Shown piece after piece: positions 1 through 44,946 of a stretch of 64,000 nucleotides of DNA. Where the stretch lies: NCBI GenBank assembly GCA_028284345.1, contig JANQRY010000007.1, forward strand, positions 5,269-69,268, read 5' to 3'. Both the position numbers and the translations under genes were made by a program. This DNA comes from Hyphococcus sp. (GTDB lineage: Bacteria; Pseudomonadota; Alphaproteobacteria; Caulobacterales; Parvularculaceae). Position 1 is the stretch's first letter, and each line of letters begins with the position of its first letter. The notes under the pieces were generated by a model that saw only the letters and a list, made by a program, of their open reading frames with translations, was not told the origin of the DNA and made no database searches.

Positions 1-744
1 GCCGTTTTCGACGAGGCGCGCCCAGGCGTCTTGCGGCGTTGAGGCGTAGTGAAAAAGCTTGAGATCGTCCGGGCTGATCATGCCGTGATCGGCGATTTTT
101 CGGAAATTGACCGCCTCGGACCAATAGGACTCGTCGAACAGGACGATGGGCAGTTTCGGCGCCTTTTCGGTCTGTACGAGGGTCAGCAATTCGAACAGCT
201 CATCGAACGTGCCGAAGCCCCCGGGAAAGATCACCAGCGCGGCGGCGCGCATGGCGAAATGCATCTTCCGCATACCGAAATAATGAAACTGAAAGGTGAG
301 GTCCGGGGTCGAATAGGGGTTCGGCTCCTGTTCAAAGGGCAGGCGGATGTTGAAGCCGATGGATGGCGCGCCGGCGTCCGCGGCGCCGCGGTTCGCCGCT
401 TCCATGATGCCGCCGCCGCCGCCCGTGGCGATGACGTTGTCGCGGCGGCCATTGTGATCCCTATCGAGGGCGCCGCCCCGTTCCGATGCAATCCGCGCAA
501 ATTCCCGCGCTGCGTCGTACCAGCGGCCGTGCTCGCCATTGCCGTTTTCAATCGTCCGGGCCGAGCCGAAGACGACGATGGTGGATCTGACGCCCCATTT
601 TCTGAGGGCCTGTTCGGCCTTTTCATATTCCAGCAGAAAGCGCACGCCGCGCTGGGGATCGTCGAGGAGAAAATCCTGATCGAGCGCCGCGAGCCGGTAG
701 GCGGGCGACGCCATCTGGTCTGCATTGGGTTTTTTTCCGCTCAT
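1..744 (-). CDS. LOG family (TIGR00730-like) nucleotide phosphoribohydrolase, runs off the window edge
   Basis: Manual translation from ATG at 744: MSGKKPNADQMASPAYRL...VVFGSAR...TGGGGGIMEAANRGA...RKMHF...FPGGFGTFDELFE (LOG PGGxGTxxE motif). Its ATG overlaps the upstream stop (ATGA). Confidence 0.9.
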   Translation of the reverse strand, partial: MSGKKPNADQMASPAYRLAALDQDFLLDDPQRGVRFLLEYEKAEQALRKWGVRSTIVVFGSARTIENGNGEHGRWYDAAREFARIASERGGALDRDHNGRRDNVIATGGGGGIMEAANRGAADAGAPSIGFNIRLPFEQEPNPYSTPDLTFQFHYFGMRKMHFAMRAAALVIFPGGFGTFDELFELLTLVQTEKAPKLPIVLFDESYWSEAVNFRKIADHGMISPDDLKLFHYASTPQDAWARLVENG

Positions 745-4438: not shown

Positions 4439-4819
4439 ATGTCGGACGCGAAAAAACAACCTGTCGGCTCCGTCGGCTGGCGGGATCTGACCGTTGAAAA
4501 TGCGGACGACGTACGCGACTTTTACGCCGCCGTGACGGGATGGACCGTACACGAAACGTCCATGGGCGATTATTCCGACTACACCATGATGGACGCGAAT
4601 GGCGAAGCGGTCGGCGGCGTCTGTCATGCGCGGGGGCCGAACGCCGATCTTCCAGCCCAATGGCTGATCTATGTGGTCGTTGAAAATCTCGAAAAGAGCC
4701 TCGACGAAACCCTGAAACGCGGCGGCGACGTGGTCGCGCCGCCGCGCGGGCTCATGGGCGGCAAGATGGCGGTGATCAAGGACCCCGCCGGCGCCGTCCT
4801 TGCGCTGTGGGAGGAATAG
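4439..4819 (+). CDS. VOC / glyoxalase-bleomycin resistance family protein
   Basis: GSVGWRDL...FYAAVTGW...WLIYVVVENLE...IKDPAGAVLALWE. Start moved to ATG 4439, which follows GGGGAGAGG. Confidence 0.88.
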   Translation: MSDAKKQPVGSVGWRDLTVENADDVRDFYAAVTGWTVHETSMGDYSDYTMMDANGEAVGGVCHARGPNADLPAQWLIYVVVENLEKSLDETLKRGGDVVAPPRGLMGGKMAVIKDPAGAVLALWEE

Positions 4820-4833
4820 GACGGGCCGCCGCC

Positions 4834-6075
4834 ATGTCGACTGACGTTTTCCTCAGCTATTCGTCGAAAGACCGGGACAAGGTCCGCCAGATCGTCGCCG
4901 CGCTTGAAGACGCCAACCTCTCCGTGTGGTGGGACCGCGAAATCGGCGCCGGCGTCATGTTCGAACGCAAGATCGAAGAAGCGCTCGACAACGCCAAATG
5001 CGTCGTTGTCGTCTGGTCGCGCGACTCCGTGGAGTCGGACTGGGTGCGCGCCGAAGCCCATGAGGGCCTCTCCCGCGGGGTGCTGGCGCCGTTGATCATC
5101 GACGATGCGAAACCGCCGCTCGCCTTCCGCCAGACCCATCACGTCAAGCTGAACGAAGGGGTGGACGCGCTGGTCGGCGAGGTTCGCCGTATTGTCGCCG
5201 AGAACGAAAAGGAGCCCGACCTTTCTGCACGCGTTCACTATGTAACGACGCCGGATAATGTGAGGCTCGCCTATGTGCGCCAGGGTGCTGGCCCGTCAGT
5301 TGTCAGAAGTCTCGGCTGGTCGACAAGCTGTGCGCTTGAGCTAAGCGGCGAAAACGCCCTGACCAATGCGCTCATCCGTGATTTCGATTTTATTTCCTAT
5401 GACGGGCGCGGCGGCGGCATGTCGGCGCGCGGGGATTTCAAGTGGTCGATCGAAGAACGCTTATGCGACCTTGAAACGGTGATCGACGCGGCGGACCTGA
5501 AAGAAAAGTTCGTCCTTTTCGGCATTTCCGAAGGGAGCCGCGCTGCGATCCTTTACGCTGACAAATATCCGGAGCGCGTCTCGCATCTCGTGCTCGATTC
5601 GCCGTCCCTGCCGTTCATTAATCCCGGTAAAGACGACTACGCATCGATGGCGTGGCTTGTCGACTTTGTGCGCGATCATTGGGGTACGGAAAACCCGCTT
5701 GCGAGCCGGATGATTTGTTCCATCTGGAGCCAGTCGGCGACGCCGGGAGAGCAACGCACCTTCATGCGCCGCCAGCGTGAAAGCATGAGCGCGGAGGCGG
5801 CGTCGCGATATATTTATTTAACGGGAACGCAAAATCTCGACCCGGGGCTGTCAAACCGCATCTGGAGCGCCGTCGCCGCCTTGAAAATCCCGACACTGGT
5901 CTTTCACACGATTGACGATCCGCTGGCGGCGTACGATCTTTCAAAGAAACTGGCGGAAACGGCGCCTAATGCGGAACTCGTGACGTCAACGCTGCCCGAT
6001 CATGGATGCGTCCTCAGCGCGTCTTTTTCGCGGCTGCAGGCGAAGGAAGTGCGGCGGTTTGTTTTAGGGCGCTAG
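4834..6075 (+). CDS. TIR_2 domain fused to alpha/beta-hydrolase
   Basis: N-terminal DVFLSYSSKDR...VWWDREI...CVVVVWSRDSVESDWVRAEA is a TIR. C-terminal YDGRGGGMS, GISEG nucleophile elbow and YPERVSHLVL. Confidence 0.88.
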   Translation: MSTDVFLSYSSKDRDKVRQIVAALEDANLSVWWDREIGAGVMFERKIEEALDNAKCVVVVWSRDSVESDWVRAEAHEGLSRGVLAPLIIDDAKPPLAFRQTHHVKLNEGVDALVGEVRRIVAENEKEPDLSARVHYVTTPDNVRLAYVRQGAGPSVVRSLGWSTSCALELSGENALTNALIRDFDFISYDGRGGGMSARGDFKWSIEERLCDLETVIDAADLKEKFVLFGISEGSRAAILYADKYPERVSHLVLDSPSLPFINPGKDDYASMAWLVDFVRDHWGTENPLASRMICSIWSQSATPGEQRTFMRRQRESMSAEAASRYIYLTGTQNLDPGLSNRIWSAVAALKIPTLVFHTIDDPLAAYDLSKKLAETAPNAELVTSTLPDHGCVLSASFSRLQAKEVRRFVLGR

Positions 6076-9669: not shown

Positions 9670-9781
9670 TTTTTTCGGGCGTTTTGCCCTGAACGACTGA
9701 TGAGGGCGGATCGGCGTCGCAGGGTTTCCCGCGACAAGCCGGTCCGCCTTTTTCTTGTGCGACGCGCAAAGGCGCGCGGCG

Positions 9782-10414
9782 CTATTCTTTCTTGCGGACC
9801 GTTGCGCGCTTCGGCTTTTTCTCCGCCGCATCGCTGCCGCCGGTTTCGACAAAATCAATCTCGGCTGTGCCGGCCGCGTCGCCGCCGCCGGCGACCTCGA
9901 CGAAGTCGATTTCAGCCGTTCCGGCCGAATGGGTCGATGAACTGATCTTGTTGTAATAAAACGCGACTTCTTCCGTAGGCCGATCATCGGCGTCGCCGCT
10001 GGTCGACCAGCTCTTAACGAAGCAGCGTTCCAGCTTGTATTTAAGATAGGCCCGGGCGCCGCCATCCGCCGGCGTTGCGAATTCCAGCACCGGGATTTCC
10101 GTCTTGCCGCGATAGGCGCGCTGCAACGCATCGCGCCCGGCAAAGCCTTTGGGCAGGGTGAGGGTGACGGTTCCGGCGTCTGGCGGCGATGCGGTTCCGC
10201 CGGTCGCGGCGGCAAGGGCGCTGCTGGCGGCGCCTGCGCGCGTCGCGGCGTCCCATTTAACGTCGAGCACTTCGACGCCGCCAGCAGGCGCTCCGGCGCT
10301 TTTCGATTCCCCGTCAATGTCGGGGATTTTCAGATAGCCGGTCATGGCCGCCGTCGCAGGCGCCGCCGCCAGGCACAGCGCCGCCGCGATCAGCGCGGAT
10401 TTCAACATGTTCAT
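9782..10414 (-). CDS. hcp: Hcp (type VI secretion tube) family protein with N-terminal signal peptide and C-terminal extension
   Basis: GYLKIPDIDGES and YLKYKLERCFVKSWSTSGDADDRPTEEVAFYYNKI match the N- and C-terminal Hcp signatures. Strong SD (GGAGGAGGGAG) precedes the first ATG. Confidence 0.8.
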   Translation of the reverse strand: MNMLKSALIAAALCLAAAPATAAMTGYLKIPDIDGESKSAGAPAGGVEVLDVKWDAATRAGAASSALAAATGGTASPPDAGTVTLTLPKGFAGRDALQRAYRGKTEIPVLEFATPADGGARAYLKYKLERCFVKSWSTSGDADDRPTEEVAFYYNKISSSTHSAGTAEIDFVEVAGGGDAAGTAEIDFVETGGSDAAEKKPKRATVRKKE

Positions 10415-33937: not shown

Positions 33938-34089
33938 AACGGCGCGCGGCGTGCCCGGTTTTTCCGCCCATTGCAAGCGGTTTGACCAAGGACGCCGGCT
34001 TGATTTGCCGCCTTCGCGGCCTCGCGCTATGTCCTTATCGTTCCGGATTTGCCTTTGACGCCGTTATCGGCCGGGGAGTCGCGCGCAAG

Positions 34090-36078
34090 ATGGCGCATAT
34101 TTTCATCAGCTACGCCCGCGCCGATCGGCCGACGATCGAAAAGCTGGCGAGCGTGCTTGAAAGCGCCGGGCACTCCGTCTGGTGGGACAGACATATTCGC
34201 GGCGGCGCAGCCTTTGCAAAAGACATTGAGGCGCAGCTTCAAAAAGCCGACGCTATTGTCGTCGCCTGGTCCGCCGCGGCGAATGAATCGGACTGGGTGA
34301 AGGACGAAGCGGTGTTCGCCCGCGACAAGGGCGTCCTGATCCCGATCTGTCTCGACGCTGCCGAGGCGCCCCTCGGTTTCCGCCAGTATCAGACCCTTGA
34401 GTTCGAAAAGTGGCGGGGCGACGCCGAGGCAAGCGCCGTTCAGTCGTTGCTCGGCGCCATTGCCGATCTCAGCGGGGCGGAGCGGCCGCTCGCGGCGGCG
34501 CCTGCGCCGACATCGTTTGCGGCGCGGGTGCAATCGGACAAGCGGTACTGGGCGGCGGCCGTTGTCGTCGCCATCGCGTTGATCGCCGGGATTTTCCTGC
34601 TGCGGGGCGCGCCGGCGCCGGATGTCGGCGGCGCGGCGGAAAGGGAGCGCAGCGCCGCGTCCGCAGAGAGCGCGCCGTCAATCGCGGTTTTGCCGTTCGC
34701 GGATATGTCGCCCGACGGCAATCAGGAATATTTTGCCGACGGCCTGTCGGAAGAGCTACTGAACGTTCTGGTGCGCGTCGACGGTCTGCAGGTCGCCTCG
34801 CGCACGTCATCCTTCGCGCTCAAGGGCAGGGTTTTATCGATTGCCGAGATCGCCGAGCGCCTTAACGTTGATCATGTGCTCGAAGGCAGCGTGCGCAAGA
34901 TGAACAACCGTGTGCGCATCACCGCGCAGTTGATCGACGCCAACACCGACAAACACCTCTGGTCCGAAACCTATGACCGGCATCTGTCGGACATCTTTCG
35001 CATACAGGACGAGATCGCGACGGCGGTTGTCGGCGCCTTGCGCGAGGAGCTGGGCATTGCCGATGATGCGCCGATCGAAATTCGTCCTGCGACGGAGGAT
35101 CTCACCGCCTACGACGCTTATCTGAAGGCGCGCGAACTGTATCTCGCGCGCGGGAAAGCGAATGTCGCCGAATCCATGCGTCTTTTTGAGCAGGCGGTTG
35201 AGTTGGACCCGAGATTCGCCCGCGGATGGGAGGGGCTCGCCGGCGTCTACGCCATTGCCACGAGCTGGGGCATTCTTGACCGGGATTATTCGGCGATGTC
35301 GCTGGTGGCGGCGAAGAGAGCGCTGGAGATCGACCCGGATTTATCCGCGCCCTATGCGGTGATCGGGCTGACCTACCGCACCCACTATCCGACGCCATGG
35401 GCGGAATCGATCGACAATCTGCAAAAAGCGATCGAGCGCGACCGGAAGGCGACGGATCCCGTTCTCTGGCTCGGCATGAATTACGTGGCCGTGGGCGATA
35501 TTGACGGAGCGATTGAAACCTTCGGCAAATGTCTTGAGATGGACCCGGCCCATAAGCTTTGCCGCAAATATCGTTCGCTTTCCTATCTGACGAAAGGCGA
35601 TACGCGGAGAGCCGTCGCGGACGCCACGATCAACGCGGAAGTTGGATATTACTCCGACTTCGACGCCTATATCCCGCATTTTCTCGGCAGGGGCGAGCGG
35701 CTGCTCGCGTTTACGATCTCGCGCACGGTCAACTGGTGGTCGAATTTTCCGCATCAGGAACTCATCGCAGCAATTGAAGACGGCGATAATCCGTCATCGG
35801 AACGAATTCAGAAATTCATGCGATGGGGCGCCGATCAGAACGTCAAGGTCAGGAGCCACGCCCACACCATGTTGACCATCCGCGCCTATGAAAACCTTAC
35901 CGTCGACAACTGGAACAATGATTATGAAATGCTGTGGCTGCCGCAGTTTTCGCATTTCCGCCAGTCGTCGGAATTTAAACAGCTCGCCGGCGATCTGGGA
36001 CTCACGGCCTATTGGCGCGAGCATGGCTTTCCGCCCCAATGCAGGGCGCTGGGCGACCTTGATTTCGAATGTAGCTAG
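34090..36078 (+). CDS. TIR_2 - TM - TolB-like - TPR membrane protein
   Basis: HIFISYARADR...WWDRHI...SDWVKDEA (TIR), TM YWAAAVVVAIALIAGIFLL, SIAVLPFADMS...EYFADGLSEELL (TolB_N-like), TPR-like helices and C-terminal YWR..GFPPQC...DFEC. Confidence 0.87.
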   Translation: MAHIFISYARADRPTIEKLASVLESAGHSVWWDRHIRGGAAFAKDIEAQLQKADAIVVAWSAAANESDWVKDEAVFARDKGVLIPICLDAAEAPLGFRQYQTLEFEKWRGDAEASAVQSLLGAIADLSGAERPLAAAPAPTSFAARVQSDKRYWAAAVVVAIALIAGIFLLRGAPAPDVGGAAERERSAASAESAPSIAVLPFADMSPDGNQEYFADGLSEELLNVLVRVDGLQVASRTSSFALKGRVLSIAEIAERLNVDHVLEGSVRKMNNRVRITAQLIDANTDKHLWSETYDRHLSDIFRIQDEIATAVVGALREELGIADDAPIEIRPATEDLTAYDAYLKARELYLARGKANVAESMRLFEQAVELDPRFARGWEGLAGVYAIATSWGILDRDYSAMSLVAAKRALEIDPDLSAPYAVIGLTYRTHYPTPWAESIDNLQKAIERDRKATDPVLWLGMNYVAVGDIDGAIETFGKCLEMDPAHKLCRKYRSLSYLTKGDTRRAVADATINAEVGYYSDFDAYIPHFLGRGERLLAFTISRTVNWWSNFPHQELIAAIEDGDNPSSERIQKFMRWGADQNVKVRSHAHTMLTIRAYENLTVDNWNNDYEMLWLPQFSHFRQSSEFKQLAGDLGLTAYWREHGFPPQCRALGDLDFECS

Positions 36079-38291
36079 GCCGCCGCGCGCCGTGTTCGCG
36101 GATTGACGTTGCGCAGGATCAGCGCTCGCCACGCCCAGCGCAGGAGCGCCAGGATCGTCGCCGGCACAAACGCAATGGTGAGCCAGAGCGCCAGCGCTTC
36201 GGCGGGGAGCGCGGAGGCGATCAGCAGCCCGGCGTAAGCGGCGACGGCAAAGAGCGAAACGACAACAGCGACGCGCGCAACCGGGCGCAGGCCGACGATC
36301 CAGAAAAAGCCTTTAAACAGTAACGCGATCAGCAACAGGGCGAAGGCGATGACGAAACCCTTCGCCAGCAAGTACAATCCACGCCCCGGGTCTTTTGCAA
36401 AGTTCACCGGCACCGGCGCTTGGCTGGAGACGAAGGCCGGCGGCGTATCGATCGCCATGGGAAGGTCGATGGCGGAATCGATGTGGCCCATGGTGACGCG
36501 GTTCTCGCCGTCCGCCGCGCGCCAGATGCGCGCCGTATTGTCCCGGGAGCCGGAAACGATCCACTCGCCGTCGCTTGTTGAGTCGAGACCGCGCACGCCG
36601 TCCTTGTGCCCTTCCAGTTCGCGCGCCATGGCTCCGGACGCGATGTCCCAGACGCGAATGACGGGATCAACGCCGCTCGTGGCGAGGACGGCGTCGCCGT
36701 CCGCAAAGGCCACCGAGAAGGCCCGCTCTGCGCCGTGGTTGAGGCTCGTCACAAGGTTGTTGTCGATGGTGCGCCAGACCCGAATGACGCCGTTGTCGGC
36801 GGCCGCGGCGAACATCGATCCGTTATTGGAGAACTTCACGTCATTGCCCGGCCCGCCGATGGACAGGGAGACGAGGCGCGCGCCGGAACGCCAGTTCCAG
36901 AGCGACACCGTGCCGTCGGCCGAGGCCGCCGCCAGAATGTCGCCGTCCGGGTGGAAATCGACCGCGTTGATATCGTCTACATGAATCGAAAGCGTGCGCA
37001 GCCGGTCGCCGGTTTCTGGATTCCAGAGGATAATCAAATTGTCGCTCGACGCGGTCGCGACCGCGGCGCCGTCCGGCGACCAGGCGACGTCGTAAACGCT
37101 GGCGCCGTGGCCGCTCAGCGTCGTGATGGGTTTTGCGTTGCCGGTGTCCCAGACAATCGCCGTGCGGTCGCGCGACGCAGAGACGGCGCGAGCGCCGTCC
37201 GGCGAGAAATCCGCGCCCCAAATCCAGCATTTGTTTTCATCATCGGCGCAGTTTTCCTTGTGACCGACAAATTCGCCCCGTTCGACCCCGGTCGCCGCGT
37301 CCCACAGCTTGATCGTATTGTCGTCGGATGCCGTCACGACATAACGCCCGCTCGCATCGAATGTAACGCTGTTGATGTCGGCGCCTTCGATGCCTTTGAC
37401 CTGCACCCCTTCGAGCGCGGCCGCATAGATGCGGCCTTCAAGAACGAGGGGCGAAATGGTGATCAACGAAAACAGGATGAGCGCAATATAAGATCGCGGC
37501 AGCAAGGCCAGCGAGGCGGCGCCGGCGGCGCGATCGGCCTCCAGCGTTCCGTACCGTGACAAAAAGGCGAGAACGCCCATGGCCGCGATGAAAATCGGGC
37601 GGTAGGCCGCGAAGACAAAGTCAGACGCATAGGCTAGGGCGCCGAAGGCGGCGGCGATCAGCACCGCCATGAACACGGCCTGACCGAACAGCGCCAGGCG
37701 CCGGCGCGAACCCGTCGTCGTGTATTTGGACGCGCGTTTTGAAACCTTGGACGGCGATTTGCGCGCCGGCTTGGGTTTCGTTTTCGGCTTTGGGGGCGGA
37801 ACGGGTTTGGGCTTTTCCGCTTCCGGCGCCGGTTTCGGTGCTTCCGGCTCGGGCTGCGGCTCAGGTTCCGGCCGGCGGTCCGGCGCGCCGGCGCCCGCTT
37901 TTGCGCCCTCGGCGACGGCGTCGATAAACGCCTTGAACGCATTGTCGTTTACATTGCCGCGCCAGTGGGTGAGGTCCGCCGTCTGAATCTGCCGAAAGCC
38001 GAGCGGTATATCCACGTTGTCGATGAGCGCCGGAAAGAGAATATCACGCGCCGCGCCTTCGTCCGCTTCGTCAGCGACGAACCGCGAGGCCACGGAATGT
38101 CGCGACCAGATGACGATAACGGACCGCGTGGAACTCAGCGCTTCGGAAATTTCCTGGCGAAAGCCTGCGCCGGTTTTGATTTTCGGGTCCCACCAGACGT
38201 GGAGGCCCTTTTGGCCGAGCGCGTTTGCGATCTTCTCGACCTTCGCGCGATCCTCGCGCGAATAGGAAATGAATACGTCGTGATGCCCCAA
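36075..38291 (-). CDS. TIR_2 - Pro/Lys linker - 3 TM - 7x WD40 - 3 TM membrane protein
   Basis: DVFISYSREDR...WWDPKI...SRFVADEA (TIR). Seven WD repeats end in IKLWD, AIVWD, IILWN, VSLWN, IRVWR, IRVWD and ARIWR. Two clusters of three hydrophobic segments. Confidence 0.87.
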   Translation of the reverse strand: MGHHDVFISYSREDRAKVEKIANALGQKGLHVWWDPKIKTGAGFRQEISEALSSTRSVIVIWSRHSVASRFVADEADEGAARDILFPALIDNVDIPLGFRQIQTADLTHWRGNVNDNAFKAFIDAVAEGAKAGAGAPDRRPEPEPQPEPEAPKPAPEAEKPKPVPPPKPKTKPKPARKSPSKVSKRASKYTTTGSRRRLALFGQAVFMAVLIAAAFGALAYASDFVFAAYRPIFIAAMGVLAFLSRYGTLEADRAAGAASLALLPRSYIALILFSLITISPLVLEGRIYAAALEGVQVKGIEGADINSVTFDASGRYVVTASDDNTIKLWDAATGVERGEFVGHKENCADDENKCWIWGADFSPDGARAVSASRDRTAIVWDTGNAKPITTLSGHGASVYDVAWSPDGAAVATASSDNLIILWNPETGDRLRTLSIHVDDINAVDFHPDGDILAAASADGTVSLWNWRSGARLVSLSIGGPGNDVKFSNNGSMFAAAADNGVIRVWRTIDNNLVTSLNHGAERAFSVAFADGDAVLATSGVDPVIRVWDIASGAMARELEGHKDGVRGLDSTSDGEWIVSGSRDNTARIWRAADGENRVTMGHIDSAIDLPMAIDTPPAFVSSQAPVPVNFAKDPGRGLYLLAKGFVIAFALLLIALLFKGFFWIVGLRPVARVAVVVSLFAVAAYAGLLIASALPAEALALWLTIAFVPATILALLRWAWRALILRNVNPRTRRAAA

Positions 38292-40505: not shown

Positions 40506-42494
40506 ATGGCGAAAAAAGCGGCGGCGAAAAAGCAGCAGCCCGAAACGGCAGAACCGGCGGACGGCCCGATTCTCGATCTGACGGACGCGGACGTTAAAAA
40601 ACTGATCAAGTCGGCGAAGTCGCGCGGCTATGTGACGTATGACGAGCTGAACAAGGTCCTGCCGTCGGAGGAAGTCTCTTCCGAACAGATCGAAGACATC
40701 ATGGCCCAGCTTTCCGAAATGGGCATCAACGTCGTCGAGCACGAGGAAGAAGACGACGACGCCGAGGGCGACGGCGACAAGACCGCAGCCGCGTCGAAGT
40801 CGAAAGCCGTCGCCACGAAAGACGCCGGCAAGGGCGGGCAGGTCGTCACCACCAATACGAGCTCGTCCGCGGACCGCACCGACGATCCCGTGCGCATGTA
40901 CTTACGCGAAATGGGCACCGTCGAGCTTCTGTCGCGGGAAGGCGAAATCGCCATCGCCAAGCGCATCGAGGCGGGCCGGGAAACGATGATCCGGGCCTTG
41001 TGCGAATCCTCGCTCACCTTCGAGGCCATCACGGTCTGGCGCGAAGAACTGATGGAAGGCCGCGTCCTGTTGCGCGACATTATCGACCTCGACGCCACCT
41101 ATGGCGGCGGGCCGGAATCGCGCCCCGACATGACGCAGCCGGAAGTCGCCGAGCGCGTCCATAAGGAAGAGGCTGAAAAGGCCGAAGCGGCAACCGACGA
41201 CGATGAGGACGAGTTCGACGAGGGCGCCTTGTCGCTGTCGGCCATGGAAGCGGAATTGCGCGACGGCGTCATGGACCGGTTCGACGAGATTTCGTCCGAC
41301 TACAAGAAATTGCGGCGCCTCCAGGACATCATGATCGAGGAACAGCGCCAGGGCGCGGACCTCACCGCCTCGCAGACGCGGCGCTTCAAGAAGCTGCAGA
41401 AAGACATTGTCGAGCGCGTGCGTCAGGTGCGCCTCAACAATCAGCGGATCGAAGCGCTGGTTGAGCAGCTTTACGACATCAACCGCAGGCTGATGGCGCT
41501 TGAGGGCAAGCTGGTGCGTCTCGCAGACTCCTACGGCGTCAATCGGCAGGAATTTCTCGCTGAATATATCGGCGCGGAACTCGATCCCGAATGGTTTGAC
41601 CGCATCGGCAAAAAAACCGGCAAGGGCTGGCAGAACTTTGTCGGCAAGGCGGAACGCCAGATCATGAATATTCGCGAGGAGATCGGCAACCTTGCGACGG
41701 AGACGGGCCTGACCGTCACCGATTTCCGCCGCATCGTTTCCATGGTGCAGAAAGGCGAGCGCGAGGCGCGCATCGCCAAGAAAGAAATGGTCGAGGCGAA
41801 CCTGCGTCTCGTCATTTCCATCGCCAAGAAATACACCAATCGCGGCCTGCAGTTCCTCGACCTCATTCAGGAAGGCAATATCGGCCTCATGAAAGCGGTC
41901 GACAAATTCGAATATCGCCGCGGCTACAAATTCTCGACCTACGCGACGTGGTGGATCCGTCAGGCGATCACCCGCTCTATCGCTGATCAGGCGCGCACCA
42001 TCCGTATTCCGGTGCACATGATCGAGACGATCAACAAGATCGTCCGCACCTCGCGCCAGATGCTGCATGAGATCGGCCGCGAGCCGACGCCGGAGGAACT
42101 GGCGGAAAAACTTTCGATGCCGCTCGAAAAAGTCCGCAAGGTGATGAAAATCGCCAAGGAGCCGATCTCCCTCGAAACGCCCATCGGCGATGAGGAAGAC
42201 AGCCATCTCGGCGACTTTATCGAGGACAAGAACACGATCCTGCCCATCGACGCGGCGATCCAGTCGAACCTGCGCGAAACGACGACGCGGGTGTTGGCGA
42301 GCCTGACGCCGCGTGAGGAGCGCGTCCTGCGCATGCGCTTCGGCATCGGCATGAACACCGACCACACCCTCGAAGAAGTCGGCCAGCAATTCTCCGTCAC
42401 CCGCGAACGCATCCGCCAGATCGAAGCGAAAGCGTTGCGCAAGCTAAAGCATCCAAGCCGAAGCCGGAAGCTGCGGAGCTTTTTGGATAATTAG
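40506..42494 (+). CDS. rpoD: RNA polymerase primary sigma factor
   Basis: [43 protein letters not shown] and [13 protein letters not shown]. Confidence 0.99.
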
Positions 42495-42537
42495 GCTGCT
42501 ATTGAATTCAGTTTAGGTCGTTTACATATGGTTGTGT

Positions 42538-43347
42538 ATGGTGACGCAACCTACGATTGAACTGTTTTCCGAGTTTCTTGATGATATTATTGCGTGTGCG
42601 ACCGAGGAATTGGGTCGTGCTTTGGCGCAAGCAAGGCTCAGACTTGGGCGAGATAATGCGCAATATTCTTCTCGCGCTTTGCACGTCATTTTTGACATAG
42701 CGCACAAGGAATATAATGCCGCATTGGACAGAGCGTTTGGTGCGTTAAAGCAAGCAAATGAGAAGTCCGGCTTGAACACGGAAGAATTGCGTAGCATCAC
42801 CGAATCAAAGCTGCGAGAGTTCGCCGAATCAGTGAAACAAATGAATAGAGCGGAGAAACTCCCACAAGCATGTCTTGGAACTATGGGCAGCTACGTTGGC
42901 GATCAGCTGCTAAAGTTCGACAAACGGTTGGATTTTTTGCTTAGGCAATTTGATGCGGGATTTTATGAGCCTGCTTGCGCGGAAATCGTTGCGCCTATGA
43001 AAAATACTATCAATATTTCGAATATGGACGGTGGGGCCATACAACAAGGCACGCAACAATCAACACAGAATATCTCTATACAAATTGATCAAGCGCAAAC
43101 GCTCTCATCTCTCCGCGAGTTTGAGAATGCGCTGAGTGAATTAAAGATCAATCAAGACACGATGGCGAGCGTTCAGGGTGATATCGACACGATAAAAGCA
43201 CAGCTCGCAAAACCTAACCCGTCAGAATCCATTATCTTAGAGGCGGGGCGTTCATTGAAAAACGTTGTTGAAAACGTCATTGCGGGTGTGTTGACACCAC
43301 CAGTGTCAAACGCAGCCGCTGCTTTATGGGCTGCGCTAAGTTTGTAA
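42538..43347 (+). CDS. Hypothetical protein, low GC, probably horizontally acquired
   Basis: Open frame of about 270 codons in an AT-rich patch (hand-counted lines about 40-45% GC). Mostly helical. C-terminal IQQGTQQSTQN...DIDTIKAQLAKPNP region. Confidence 0.75.
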   Translation: MVTQPTIELFSEFLDDIIACATEELGRALAQARLRLGRDNAQYSSRALHVIFDIAHKEYNAALDRAFGALKQANEKSGLNTEELRSITESKLREFAESVKQMNRAEKLPQACLGTMGSYVGDQLLKFDKRLDFLLRQFDAGFYEPACAEIVAPMKNTINISNMDGGAIQQGTQQSTQNISIQIDQAQTLSSLREFENALSELKINQDTMASVQGDIDTIKAQLAKPNPSESIILEAGRSLKNVVENVIAGVLTPPVSNAAAALWAALSL

Positions 43348-43500
43348 AAAGGCGATCAACTTTGATGTTGCCTATCATGTTCATTAGTTGCGCTGCGTTC
43401 TAACGGCTGCTTTCGGCGCCGCAGCATGACTGTGTCTGGCGCTCTTTGGAAGCAAACCTCTTCCTGCTACGGTGTGCCCGGGTAGCGCGGGAGCGGGGAG

Positions 43501-44946
43501 ATGACATCCGGACATTCCTTCATTCGCATGATCGCGGGCGGCCTCGTTGCGATCTTTCTTTATGGATGCGCGGCGACGGGCGGGCCGCTCGGGCTTTCGC
43601 CGACGCAGGAAGAAGCGCTGGGCCAGCAGCAGCATCCGCAAATTCTGGCGGCGTTCGGCGGCGAACTCGATGACCCGCAACTGACGGCTTATGTGGAAGG
43701 CGTCTTTGACCGCCTGATGGCGGCGTCGGACCAGCCGGATGCGGACATCAACGTTTATGTCCTCGACAGTCCGGTGGTGAACGCCATGGCCGTGCCCGGT
43801 CATGTTTACGTGACCCGCGGCCTTCTCGCGCTCGCCAATTCCGAAGCCGAACTCGCCGGCGTTTTGGGGCACGAGATCGGACACATCTTCGAGCGCCATA
43901 TCGCCAAGCGCGTCAGCCGGTCCAACATTGCGCAACTGGGAACGGTTGCGGCGGCGATCCTGACGGGCGACGCCGACACGGCGCAGTTGGTCGGGCAGGG
44001 GGCGCAGCTTTATCTTCTCAGTTTCTCGCGCGATCAGGAATATGAATCCGACCTTGTCGGCACGCGGCTCCTTGCTTCCGCCGGATATGATCCCATCGGC
44101 GCCGCGCAGTTTCTGAACACGCTGGGCGCCTGGACTGATCTCGACGCACGGATCGCCGGCGTTCAGCAACCGCCGGAATATTTAAAGACGCATCCGAACT
44201 CGGCAAACCGCGTCGCCCGGGCGGCGCAGGAAGCCAATGCGTTGCGCCAGGCCGGCGCAACCTCCGACGAACGCAATCGCGCGGTTTACCTCAACGCCGT
44301 CGACGGCCTTCTTTATGGCGACGACCCGATCAAGCAGGGCTTCATCCGCGGGCGCGATTTTGTTCACCCGCAACTGCGTTTCGCGTTCACCGCGCCGAAC
44401 GGATTTGAGATGCGCAATTCCTCGCAAGCGGTGACGGCGCGATCCTCGTCAGGGGCGCAGATGCAGTTCACGAGCGCGTCGTCGCAGAACGGGCCCGAGG
44501 CGCTGATCAACCAAGCCATATCGCAGGCGCTGAAGGTTGATCTGTCGCCGGCGCAGCGCATCAGCGTCGCCGGCCGTCCCGGCGCGGCGGGACGGGCGCG
44601 CGCCAATACGCAAAACGGCGCCGTCGACGTCACAGCCTACGCCGTTCAATGGCAGGGCGCCGCGCACTGGGTGTTTCTCTGGGTGACGCCGGCAAACCAG
44701 ACGCGCCAGCTCGAACGCGCGATCAATCAGTCCGTGCAGTCGCTACGCGATATTGATCCGGGATCAGTCAATGCGCCGGCGGCGCAGCGGGTCGATGTGG
44801 TGACGGCGCAGCGCGGCGATTCCGTGTCGGCGTTGTCGCGTTACATGGCGTTTCCGTCCTATCGCCAGGAACGCTTTTTAATCCTGAACGCCCTCGGCGA
44901 AGATGAGGCGGTCACGGCCGGCGAACGCTACAAGCTGGTCCGTTGA
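43501..44946 (+). CDS. M48 family metalloprotease lipoprotein with C-terminal LysM-like domain
   Basis: Lipobox LYGC, VNAMAVPG, HEIGH zincin, FSRDQEYESD, THP and terminal VVTAQRGDSV...ILNAL. Confidence 0.88.
   Translation: MTSGHSFIRMIAGGLVAIFLYGCAATGGPLGLSPTQEEALGQQQHPQILAAFGGELDDPQLTAYVEGVFDRLMAASDQPDADINVYVLDSPVVNAMAVPGHVYVTRGLLALANSEAELAGVLGHEIGHIFERHIAKRVSRSNIAQLGTVAAAILTGDADTAQLVGQGAQLYLLSFSRDQEYESDLVGTRLLASAGYDPIGAAQFLNTLGAWTDLDARIAGVQQPPEYLKTHPNSANRVARAAQEANALRQAGATSDERNRAVYLNAVDGLLYGDDPIKQGFIRGRDFVHPQLRFAFTAPNGFEMRNSSQAVTARSSSGAQMQFTSASSQNGPEALINQAISQALKVDLSPAQRISVAGRPGAAGRARANTQNGAVDVTAYAVQWQGAAHWVFLWVTPANQTRQLERAINQSVQSLRDIDPGSVNAPAAQRVDVVTAQRGDSVSALSRYMAFPSYRQERFLILNALGEDEAVTAGERYKLVR

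Follow-up and report, generated by a model that had tools for sequence, protein, structure and literature searches.

Gene Content of the Locus

The window, i.e., the whole stretch of 64,000 nucleotides that was analysed, contains a minus-strand gene for a protein in which a TIR domain is combined with six transmembrane (TM) helices and a WD40 propeller, and its neighbours there are typA, a second TIR receptor gene, dnaG and rpoD (Table 1). The TTG start codon agrees with the MGHHDVFISY N-termini of the homologs in the alignment, and given that approximately 85 full-length homolog clusters share 44-84% identity with the protein, a chance ORF was rejected and a conserved gene accepted. The source genome is placed here in the genus Marinicaulis.

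Together with its convergent partner, which encodes a TIR-1TM-TPR protein, the gene forms a two-gene island that fills the gap between typA and dnaG, which are separated by only 145-160 bp in three congeneric genomes that lack the island. The pair is kept in Marinicaulis genomes, and the distribution is patchy even among congeners, some of which have an empty site; the TIR-WD40 gene is an accessory gene. The partner, for which the Met at 34090 is the probable true start, matches Pfam TIR_2 (E 4e-23) and TPR, as well as the NCBIfam models of the CadC periplasmic region and of Thoeris III ThcB4, both under the cut-off. Its predicted layout resembles that of the ToxR/CadC-like and adenylate-cyclase receptors (TM + TolB-N-like + TPR), in which a single TM likewise separates a cytoplasmic output at the N-terminus from a periplasmic sensor at the C-terminus, but the output is a DNA-binding or cyclase domain instead of a TIR.

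Table 1. Features of the TIR-WD40 gene, its convergent partner and the proposed effector gene.
Feature	Position	Strand	Remarks
Whole TIR-WD40 gene	36075..38291	-	738 aa, TTG start; TIR, linker, 3 TM, 7-blade WD40, 3 TM, basic tail
TIR domain, residues 4-130	37902..38282	-	predicted cytoplasmic; Pfam TIR_2, PDB sequence matches
Codon of E75	38067..38069	-	Glu at the catalytic position, motif SRFVADEADEG; alignment with RUN1
Pro/Glu/Lys-rich flexible linker, residues 131-189	37725..37901	-	length varies among homologs; many alignment gaps
Conserved YTTTG-x-RRR motif and TM1-TM3, residues 190-284	37440..37724	-	includes the conserved basic loop 2-3 (SRYGTLEADRAAGAASLALLPRS)
Seven-bladed WD40 propeller, residues 303-603	36483..37385	-	predicted periplasmic; AlphaFold2, Foldseek, Pfam
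Clade-specific acidic insert KENCADDENKC	37227..37259	-	Cys pair C348/C355; loop joining blades 1 and 2
Conserved Pro-rich segment leading to TM4, residues 604-634	36390..36482	-	IDSAIDLPMAIDTPPAFVSSQAPVPVNF; pLDDT 86-90
TM4-TM6, residues 635-729	36105..36389	-	basic loop RPVAR in the TM4/TM5 gap, acidic turn PAEA in the TM5/TM6 gap
Basic C-terminal tail (NPRTRRAAA) and stop codon	36075..36104	-	stop codons of the two convergent genes overlap
Convergent partner gene	33982..36078	+	TIR (Glu intact, WVKDE), 1 TM, TolB-N-like/CadC-like domain, TPR; Pfam, NCBIfam
Own-genome SLOG-SLATT gene, proposed partner	C7:575859-577730		unlinked to the island

Domain Architecture

The order of domains read by the first-pass annotation (TIR, linker, three TM, seven WD40 repeats, three TM and an Arg-rich tail) was recovered by Pfam, hydropathy and an AlphaFold2 model of the 738-aa protein (pLDDT 87, pTM 0.80) with 3+3 helices and seven blades. 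The absence of a NACHT/STAND ATPase also held: the best 25 of the 44 Pfam families matched include neither NACHT nor NB-ARC nor any other NTPase domain, and the region between the TIR and the WD40 consists of a disordered linker (pLDDT <50 at residues 141-162) and three TM helices, and not of a STAND NTPase. A likeness of this linker to TonB was discarded, as the matches were weak and are explained by composition.

The N-terminal TIR carries, as far as can be read from its sequence, every hallmark of a catalytic TIR. Its residues 6-113 match Pfam TIR_2 with an E-value of 2e-22 and 80 bits (cut-off, 28), a PDB sequence search returned PdTIR, RUN1 and AbTIR, and residues 6-132 are modelled by AlphaFold2 as an alpha/beta domain with the TIR fold. 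The Glu noted earlier at the catalytic position (FVADE) lies in the alpha-C motif, where E75 is aligned with the Glu of SRWCLDEL in RUN1, the catalytic E100 of that protein, and E75, D74 and D77 are invariant in the 80 homologs.

The propeller is spanned by Pfam WD40 at about 300-600 (E 8e-56), and its 28 strands form seven blades at residues 306-602 of the AlphaFold2 model, i.e., a canonical WD40 propeller, which Foldseek matches to the WD40 of PkwA (5yzv; TM 0.92, rmsd 1.9). The segment that follows is Pro-rich, with A607, D615, P617, A625 and P626 invariant and P611, P618 and P628 nearly invariant in the homolog alignment. The Cys pair previously read as fitting a periplasmic disulfide is real, and both C348 and C355 are kept wherever the insert of the closer clade occurs, with a variable loop sequence between them. 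As an argument for a disulfide or for the periplasm it is weak, given that the insert belongs to one clade and is missing in distant homologs (exactly two Cys in this region in 29 of the 80 homologs, one in a single homolog and none in 50), and the scarcity of Cys is uninformative on location because cytoplasmic bacterial WD40s are just as Cys-poor (0.22% against 0.25%).

Membrane Topology

Both Kyte-Doolittle hydropathy and the AlphaFold2 model place three helices on the N-terminal side of the propeller (194-222, 228-255 and 266-284), which is the odd number expected earlier, and three on its C-terminal side (635-665, 669-694 and 697-729). A profile of the TM1-TM3 module, searched among 1.84 billion representatives, matched TIR/TM/WD40 proteins only.

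The basic residues that had suggested a positive-inside reading (RRR before TM1, RPVAR between TM4 and TM5, and RTRR in the tail) are all present, and the reading is now backed by 80 homologs and four distant members of the family rather than by one sequence. From the N- to the C-terminus, the mean K+R counts of the 80 homologs are 6.9 before TM1, 0 in loop 1-2, 3.4 in loop 2-3, then 2.1 and 2.5 (the latter before TM4), 1.6 plus K660 in loop 4-5, 0 in loop 5-6, which has one D/E, and 5.3 in the tail (718-738). Added up, the side predicted to be cytoplasmic has about 17 K+R and the opposite side about 4.6, with a mild violation of the positive-inside pattern in the approximately 2.5 K+R found on the propeller side just before TM4. 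The same pattern is kept in the four distant members (P0128-P0131), and loop 1-2 of P0131 has eight acidic residues and no basic ones. Only the topology with the TIR inside and the WD40 outside fits these counts, which, together with the 3+3 helices, strongly favour it and make it clearly the best computational reading and a probable one.

Genomic Links to SLOG-SLATT Proteins

In distant lineages, the orthologue is adjoined by DUF4231/SLATT proteins (loci L018/L022, L021, L025 and L048), and at other loci (L019, L020 and L023) by TrkA_N-RyR proteins, which are 2TM-TrkA_N-RyR-SLOG membrane proteins. These two kinds of neighbours have one domain in common, which, modelled from the homolog in the own genome, folds as SLOG (pLDDT 86), with YpsA (2nx2) as the top Foldseek match (TMt 0.65, prob 1.0), followed by Moco carrier protein, ShosA and DprA. 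The own-genome protein joins this SLOG fold to a SLATT 2-TM domain, for which NCBIfam SLATT_1 scores 40 bits, just below the cut-off of 41, and Pfam DUF4231 exceeds its cut-off in P0124, a homolog with 39% identity.

While a TIR gene and an effector gene are neighbours at the orthologous loci (L018-L023, L025 and L048), in this genome they are found only in trans. As no effector gene adjoins the TIR-WD40 gene in this window, its coupling to the SLOG-SLATT protein rests on co-occurrence: in 61 genomes of the family, both genes are present in seven, one alone in two and the other alone in two, and neither in 50, with a Fisher p of 2.8e-6 that is inflated by kinship, as five of the nine positive genomes belong to one genus. 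A TIR or TIR-like gene was also found in the 5-kb flanks of 34 of 40 SLOG-SLATT-related loci from several phyla, nearly always adjacent. In the own genome, the adjacent gene encodes a TIR-like-1TM-FGE protein in which the catalytic Glu is replaced by Gln, and this Gln occurs at all the Marinicaulis loci examined. The genome's repertoire of TIR-TM-sensor proteins further includes two copies of TIR-1TM-TPR, and in both kinds of protein the single TM would put the C-terminal domain outside. The first-pass annotation overlooked both the links to SLOG-SLATT and RyR-SLOG proteins and the accessory-island status of the gene.

Comparison with Known Systems

In the Thoeris systems, a TIR protein is combined with a SIR2-SLOG effector, ThsA (type I), several TIR proteins are combined with a SLOG effector (type III), or a TIR protein, ThsB, with a SLATT effector, ThsH (type VII). 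The present family resembles these in the catalytic Glu of its TIR, in the pairing of its orthologues with a SLOG- and SLATT-bearing membrane effector, in the several TIR proteins per genome and in its accessory, patchy distribution. On the other hand, known ThsB proteins are, to our knowledge, soluble cytoplasmic sensors, whereas the present TIR shares its chain with a 6-TM module and a WD40 that is predicted to be periplasmic, the effector is unlinked in this genome, and SLOG and SLATT are joined in one chain. Curated models do not recognise the protein either: the PADLOC check suggested by the first-pass annotation returned no system, its matches being to the TIR domain and, at a weak level, to the WD40 region, and the PADLOC and NCBIfam models of Thoeris stay far below their cut-offs (ThsB1, E 1.3e-3 and 16 bits; ThcB4, 17.7 bits against 220), with matches confined to the TIR part.

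The Toll-like-receptor analogue proposed earlier stands as regards the overall layout, with a repeat-domain sensor predicted outside, a membrane span and an inside TIR that would be activated by ligand-induced proximity, as in the Toll-like and IL-1 receptors. The output departs from it, being more likely a diffusible signal to an effector than an adaptor cascade. Those receptors are single-pass proteins with an LRR or Ig sensor and a C-terminal TIR that acts as an adaptor scaffold, in contrast with the WD40, the polytopic 3+3 TM arrangement and the N-terminal, apparently enzymatic TIR (Glu intact) found here, where MyD88-like adaptors are absent. The likeness is one of analogy, and not of orthology. 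Bacterial NLR-like proteins (TIR-STAND, with NACHT or NB-ARC, and WD40 or TPR) share the N-terminal TIR and the C-terminal WD40 arm, and provide the closest WD40 sequences. They differ in having an NTPase, in place of which a membrane module would replace the oligomerisation switch here, and in that the present sensor is predicted to be extracytoplasmic.

Proposed Mechanism and Alternatives

The explanation favoured here, although the case for it is evenly balanced, is that the protein is a ThsB-like transmembrane sensor of a Thoeris-like system, in which the clustered TIR would make an NAD-derived signal that opens a SLOG-SLATT pore. An extracytoplasmic cue, which at the simplest guess would be a phage component or damage to the envelope, would bind the propeller or perturb the membrane module and cluster the receptors. 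Since the tether of approximately 60 residues is floppy, the TIR domains would be brought together by proximity and not by rigid coupling, and, once assembled, they would cleave or cyclise NAD+ to a cADPR-type nucleotide. The SLOG-SLATT membrane protein may then recognise this nucleotide through its YpsA-like SLOG domain, and would permeabilise the membrane and lead to growth arrest or abortive infection. Given that the SLOG-SLATT gene is unlinked and that its adjacent TIR-like receptor has a Gln, the signal may be supplied in trans by the catalytically competent membrane TIRs, i.e., the TIR-WD40 protein and its TIR-1TM-TPR neighbour. The neighbourhoods and the co-occurrence with SLOG-SLATT and RyR-SLOG proteins make it likely that the output is an NAD-derived signal that diffuses to a pore-forming effector, as in Thoeris. 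In the literature, TIR+SLATT has been described as type VII Thoeris with cADPR as the signal (bioRxiv 10.64898/2025.12.03.692087), YpsA-clade SLOG domains as sensors of cADPR variants, and SLATT as a predicted permeability effector gated by an ADPr derivative (PMC9503650).

A housekeeping signalling role must also be considered, given that the island is surrounded by core genes, is normal in G+C and lacks marks of mobile elements. In such a non-immune receptor of the environment or of the envelope state, the TIR nucleotide would be an ordinary second messenger that gates SLOG-SLATT here and TrkA_N-RyR-SLOG in relatives, with ion flux and osmotic or envelope homeostasis as the outcome, and no suicide. 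This fits the one-component-receptor modules (CadC-like/TPR and FGE) of the genome's TIR-TM-sensor proteins, the RyR/TrkA_N neighbours, which resemble regulated channel-type proteins more than toxins, and the lack of phage, restriction-modification or other defence genes near the island. The role is nonetheless unlikely, as the patchiness within the genus and the empty sites are typical of accessory conflict genes, and the TIR+SLATT and TIR+SLOG pairs characterised to date are anti-phage (bioRxiv 10.64898/2025.12.03.692087; PMC9503650).

The protein may alternatively both sense and kill, with a clustered TIR that depletes NAD+ and neither a diffusible signal nor a separate effector, which would be consistent with the intact Glu, with the lack of an effector gene in the island of this genome, and with the best PADLOC TIR matches, which are effector-type TIRs (SAVED_TIR and PDC-S66). 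Direct depletion of NAD+ by a TIR is seen in the TIR-STING or TIR-SAVED effectors and in SARM1. A self-contained NADase is rather improbable here, however, as the orthologue is found repeatedly beside SLOG-bearing membrane proteins and co-occurs with SLOG-SLATT, and the second catalytic TIR receptor of the island and the pseudo-TIR receptor of the SLOG-SLATT locus suggest a network and not a killer that works alone.

A canonical PF00400 WD40 propeller is nearly always a cytoplasmic domain, and the WD40 sequences most closely related to this one (33-38% identity) form the arms of STAND or kinase proteins of the cytoplasm. Soluble TIR...WD40 proteins also exist (P0107), and a described periplasmic PF00400 WD40 was not found in the literature, nor is one reported in PMC5587647. 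If a weak segment did not span the membrane, most plausibly TM2, which contains the conserved R231-P232 and has the lowest Kyte-Doolittle hydropathy of the six segments (1.92), or if the helices were a mere anchor, the WD40 would face the cytoplasm and detect a ligand inside the cell, at the membrane, as the WD40 arms do in STAND/NLR-like defence proteins. This is distinctly improbable, as a non-spanning TM2 would leave two basic loops (2-3 and 4-5) as well as the +5 tail outside and reduce the K+R bias from about +12.5 to about -1, AlphaFold2 models TM2 with high confidence as a helix of 28 residues within the 3+3 layout, loop 1-2 of the distant members is extended into an acidic, K/R-free segment, and the sensor domains of the sibling TIR proteins are placed outside through their single TM.

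Returning to the ThsB-like transmembrane sensor, a periplasmic WD40 and an outside-in logic both appear to be undescribed so far. If this explanation is true, the TIR-WD40 family would represent a Thoeris-type immune sensor of bacteria that works from the outside in.

Domain architecture and extent of the family

The start assigned to the TIR-6TM-WD40 gene is sound, given that the full-length homologs begin at the same MGHHDVFISY motif in the alignment. Pfam places a TIR_2 domain at residues 6-113 (E 2e-22) and a WD40 array at residues ~300-600 (E 8e-56), with no NTPase domain, and hydropathy recovers three hydrophobic segments N-terminal to the propeller and three C-terminal to it. The AlphaFold2 model computed with 80 homologs (pLDDT 87, pTM 0.80) presents, in addition to the elements listed in the table, a short strand at residues 191-192. 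The propeller is the sole part matched by Foldseek, which found no structure resembling the whole architecture; the best match is the prokaryotic PkwA WD40 domain 5yzv (TM 0.92). Neither TM module matched a known membrane-domain family (best Pfam E ~0.2). Given these Pfam, hydropathy, AlphaFold2 and Foldseek results, the domain description provided by the first-pass annotation (TIR, linker, 3+3 helices and seven WD40 blades) was accurate, as was the claimed absence of a NACHT/STAND NTPase.

The same annotation had recognized a Glu at the catalytic position (FVADE), and this residue, E75, is well supported. In a PDB sequence search, SRFVADEADEG aligns with RUN1 SRWCLDEL, PdTIR and AbTIR, and E75 matches the Glu that we take to be the catalytic E100 of RUN1. 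E75 is invariant in the 80 homologs (44-84% identity), together with D74, D77 and the block DIPLGFRQIQTADL, a conservation pattern which, judged from the alignment, reads as that of an enzyme rather than of a decaying adaptor.

A profile built from the N-terminal TM module matched only 11 of 1.84 billion representative proteins, all of the TIR/TM/WD40 type. These 11 representative clusters make up a small, well-defined family, and the possibility that the module is a reusable receptor scaffold was rejected, given that no other sensor or output domains accompany it in 11/11 matches. Four shorter homologs (P0056, P0058, P0088 and P0089) were rejected as a separate “TIR-less” architecture, as they begin within TM1 or later and appear to be truncated gene calls. 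The searchable literature, the coverage of which is incomplete, yielded no account of a polytopic TIR receptor into which a WD40 array is inserted.

Coordinates of the genes, loci and protein segments discussed in the text (C10, the contig that contains the window; C7, another contig of the same genome; L, homologous loci)
Feature	Location	Strand	Details
TIR-6TM-WD40 ORF	window 36075-38291	-	longest ORF, 738 aa, TTG start
Disordered linker	residues 141-162		AlphaFold2
Pre-propeller helices	residues 194-222, 228-255, 266-284		AlphaFold2
Propeller	residues 306-602		28 strands = seven blades, AlphaFold2
Post-propeller helices	residues 635-665, 669-694, 697-729		AlphaFold2
TIR-1TM-TPR neighbour	window 33982-36078	+	TIR Glu intact, 1 TM, TolB-N-like/CadC-like periplasmic domain, TPR
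Paralogue of TIR-1TM-TPR neighbour	C7:13798-15684
Soluble TIR	window ~4684-6075 (C10:9952-11343)	+	motif WVRAE, alpha/beta-hydrolase-like C-terminal half
271-aa ORF	window 42532-43347	+	no Pfam match, directly behind rpoD
Lowest-G+C 2-kb bin	window 42001-44000		0.547 vs ~0.62 elsewhere; holds the 271-aa ORF
SLOG-SLATT gene	C7:575859-577730	-	108 bp upstream of TIR-like-1TM-FGE-sulfatase gene
TIR-like-1TM-FGE-sulfatase gene	C7:573703-575751	-	beside SLOG-SLATT
MoCoBD and 2Fe-2S (Fer2) oxidoreductase subunits	L013:6757-9606		genome G003, between the island's TIR genes
Pentapeptide-repeat protein and AraC regulator	L024:10210-14048		between the island's TIR genes
DUF4231/SLATT neighbours	L018/L022 (Parvularcula lutaonensis), L021, L025, L048		~600-670 aa; in L021, 78 bp upstream, same strand
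RyR-SLOG neighbours	L019:7071-9458, L020:11345-13870, L023:10898-13123		~740-840 aa, 2 TM, TrkA_N, RyR, SLOG-like; three other Parvularculaceae genomes
PrsW-family membrane protease and HTH_3 regulator	L025:6728-7753 and 9703-10383		between the clustered genes
Different TIR gene directly adjoining a SLOG or SLOG-SLATT homolog	L060/L061:3976-5570, L058:3693-6554, L057:5001-8123		uncultured Alphaproteobacteria, Dehalococcoidales, Chlorobiaceae

Genomic context and distribution

The TIR-6TM-WD40 gene and the convergent TIR-1TM-TPR gene, the stop codons of which overlap, sit between typA and dnaG-rpoD. As only 145-160 bp separate typA from dnaG in three congeneric genomes, the two TIR genes constitute an accessory island, with typA lying outside it. 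The same island is found in other Marinicaulis genomes (the genus name used here for the source genome and its congeners), some of which carry extra cargo between the TIR genes, and it behaves as a small hot spot. Full-length orthologues are present in 9/61 genomes of the family and 5/8 of the genus. The G+C content of the island is native, and no flanking repeats or mobility genes were found around it, only the 126-nt WD40 periodicity. The 3.4-Mb genome contains six TIR ORFs in all, including the soluble TIR of the window.

Membrane topology

The mean number of Lys and Arg residues, counted per segment over the 80 homologs, is 6.9 before TM1, 0.0 in loop 1-2 (three residues, usually including Asp), 3.4 in loop 2-3, 2.1 after TM3 (vs. 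2.9 Asp/Glu), 2.5 before TM4, 1.6 in loop 4-5 (plus the near-invariant K660), 0.0 in loop 5-6 (one Asp/Glu) and 5.3 in the C-terminal tail. With the TIR inside and six spanning helices, ~17 basic residues lie inside vs. ~4.6 outside, and the positive-inside reading first made from the single sequence thus holds across the 80 homologs and four distant members. The latter (P0128-P0131, very distant and among the 11 profile matches) retain the 3+3 arrangement and the charge pattern, and in P0131 loop 1-2 has 22 residues, eight acidic and zero basic, and loop 4-5 has five basic residues. An even number of N-terminal helices, which would place the WD40 array in the cytoplasm, was not seen, given that hydropathy and AlphaFold2 both give three before the propeller. 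The weakest segment is TM2, which carries the conserved R231-P232; if it is taken as non-spanning, the charge bias drops to about -1.

Among the other proteins of this genome are two TIR-1TM-TolB-N-like-TPR proteins and one TIR-like-1TM-FGE-sulfatase protein, in which the single TM puts the C-terminal domain outside, and one of these proteins shows an alignment to the CadC periplasmic sensor region. Taken together, the charge counts, the distant members and these single-TM siblings make it likely that the TIR is inside and the WD40 array outside.

The Cys pair initially read as a sign of a periplasmic disulfide (C348/C355) does exist, flanking an acidic insert in the blade 1-2 loop, and is probably a single insertion event. 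It is nevertheless a weak argument for the periplasm, since the insert is confined to the closer clade (two Cys in this region in 29 of the 80 homologs, none in 50 and one in the other) and cytoplasmic WD40 proteins are just as poor in Cys. Cys scarcity as evidence of export was rejected for this latter reason (0.22% vs. 0.25% in the comparison with control cytoplasmic WD40 arms).

Candidate effectors

Beyond Marinicaulis, the orthologue lies elsewhere in the genome and always adjoins a membrane protein, of either the DUF4231/SLATT type or the RyR type, the two types having one soluble domain in common (BLASTP E 1e-11). The source genome has no RyR-domain protein, and the RyR-SLOG partner therefore applies to relatives only. 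That a RyR domain lies next to a TIR, potentially a source of cADPR, strikingly parallels eukaryotic cADPR/ryanodine-receptor signalling.

The SLATT-type homolog of the source genome, on C7, is 39% identical (AlphaFold pLDDT 86, pTM 0.85). The best structural matches of its N-terminal domain are YpsA, the Moco carrier protein, ShosA, DprA and TM1055, which we take to be SLOG superfamily members, and its helical C-terminal half reaches 40 bits with SLATT_1, vs. a cut-off of 41. The SLOG likeness came from this fold search, given that a PDB sequence search with the domain returned noise only. In L025, the TIR-6TM-WD40, SLOG-SLATT and TIR-TPR genes are found inside a single 9-kb cluster, where the protease and regulator genes that lie between them may be additional components.

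Across 61 family genomes, seven have both TIR-6TM-WD40 and SLOG-SLATT, two have each singly and 50 have neither (Fisher p 2.8e-6, phylogeny ignored), and the two “WD40-only” genomes are those in which a RyR-SLOG protein adjoins the orthologue. A TIR or TIR-like gene lies inside the 5-kb flanks of 34/40 SLOG-SLATT-related loci from several phyla, nearly always adjacent, which matches published themes, namely TIR+SLATT (type VII Thoeris, with a cADPR signal) and TIR+SLOG (bioRxiv 10.64898/2025.12.03.692087; PMC9503650). Given the adjacent TIR genes at L060/L061, L058 and L057, TIR plus SLOG-SLATT is a two-gene module across phyla.

In Marinicaulis, the gene beside SLOG-SLATT is TIR-like-1TM-FGE-sulfatase, and the pair (C7:573703-577730) adjoins dnaK-dnaJ. 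In its TIR-like domain, the catalytic Glu is replaced by Gln (...RLHEQAREAL...) in all ~25 Marinicaulis/Parvularculaceae loci examined, whereas Asp-Glu is kept in TIR-6TM-WD40 and its TPR neighbour. This protein is apparently a conserved pseudo-TIR receptor that forms a pair with the effector, and the Gln suggests that its TIR is probably inactive, in which case any nucleotide signal would need to be made by catalytic TIR receptors encoded at other sites, for example by the pair in the typA-dnaG island. A signal supplied in trans agrees with the co-occurrence data and with a network in which multiple sensors act on one effector.

Proposed mechanism and alternatives

The anatomy, intact catalytic motif, flexible tether, 3+3 helices, charge asymmetry, accessory status and SLOG link are all computed features, from which a tentative reading may be outlined, that is, a conceptually new outside-in TIR pathway in bacteria, represented by TIR-6TM-WD40. 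The propeller, taken to be periplasmic, would detect a cue from outside the cytoplasm (envelope damage, for instance, or a phage adsorbing to the cell or a predator in the periplasm), which the polytopic membrane module would relay by clustering the receptors. A linker as long and disordered as that in the model favours activation through TIR proximity over a rigidly transmitted conformational change. The cytoplasmic face of this relay may include the invariant YTTTG-x-R motif and the basic loop 2-3, which is conserved. The clustered cytoplasmic TIRs would then turn NAD+ into a cADPR-type messenger, to be bound by the SLOG domains of the responders, which would be SLATT pores here, permeabilising the membrane, and TrkA_N-RyR-domain proteins in relatives. 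Several catalytic and pseudo-TIR receptors, with WD40, TPR and FGE ectodomains, may converge on one effector.

In its predicted function, TIR-6TM-WD40 works most like the ThsB sensor of Thoeris, although it belongs to none of the curated types, given the lack of an adjacent effector in the window and the sub-threshold model matches. The PADLOC check that had been proposed gave, with NCBIfam, matches to the TIR part only (PDC-S66, SAVED_TIR, ThsB1 and ThcB4), far below any system-level cut-off (17.7 bits vs. 220 for ThcB4). A second-messenger receptor with no role in immunity would sit less easily with the Thoeris-like partners and is unlikely. The intact catalytic motif would also suit a stand-alone effector that depletes NAD+, a reading rendered more doubtful still by the co-occurrence with SLOG-SLATT.

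Canonical WD40 propellers are normally cytoplasmic. No case in the periplasm is reported by a systematic survey (PMC5587647). Even so, the charge asymmetry leaves a cytoplasmic propeller as the least probable of these alternatives.

Implications

The lack of an NTPase excludes TIR-6TM-WD40 from the NLR-like TIR-STAND-WD40 class, and the analogy with Toll-like receptors that was drawn at first stands for the architecture only, the closest functional likeness being with ThsB. To our knowledge, the TIR-based bacterial immune systems described so far detect infection inside the cell, and no canonical WD40 propeller has yet been assigned to the periplasm. If a periplasmic sensor does drive this TIR, NAD-derived immune or second-messenger signalling could be triggered from outside the cytoplasmic membrane, prior to or independently of genome entry. 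Given that the family is small and well delimited, that candidate effectors can be identified and that a pseudo-TIR paralogue occurs naturally, its topology, enzymology and signalling are directly testable in laboratory hosts by standard methods. If true, TIR-6TM-WD40 would present the first canonical WD40 propeller located in the periplasm and the closest prokaryotic architectural analogue of Toll-like receptors, and prokaryotes would have a counterpart both to surface sensing in the TLR style and to signalling of the cADPR-to-RyR type.
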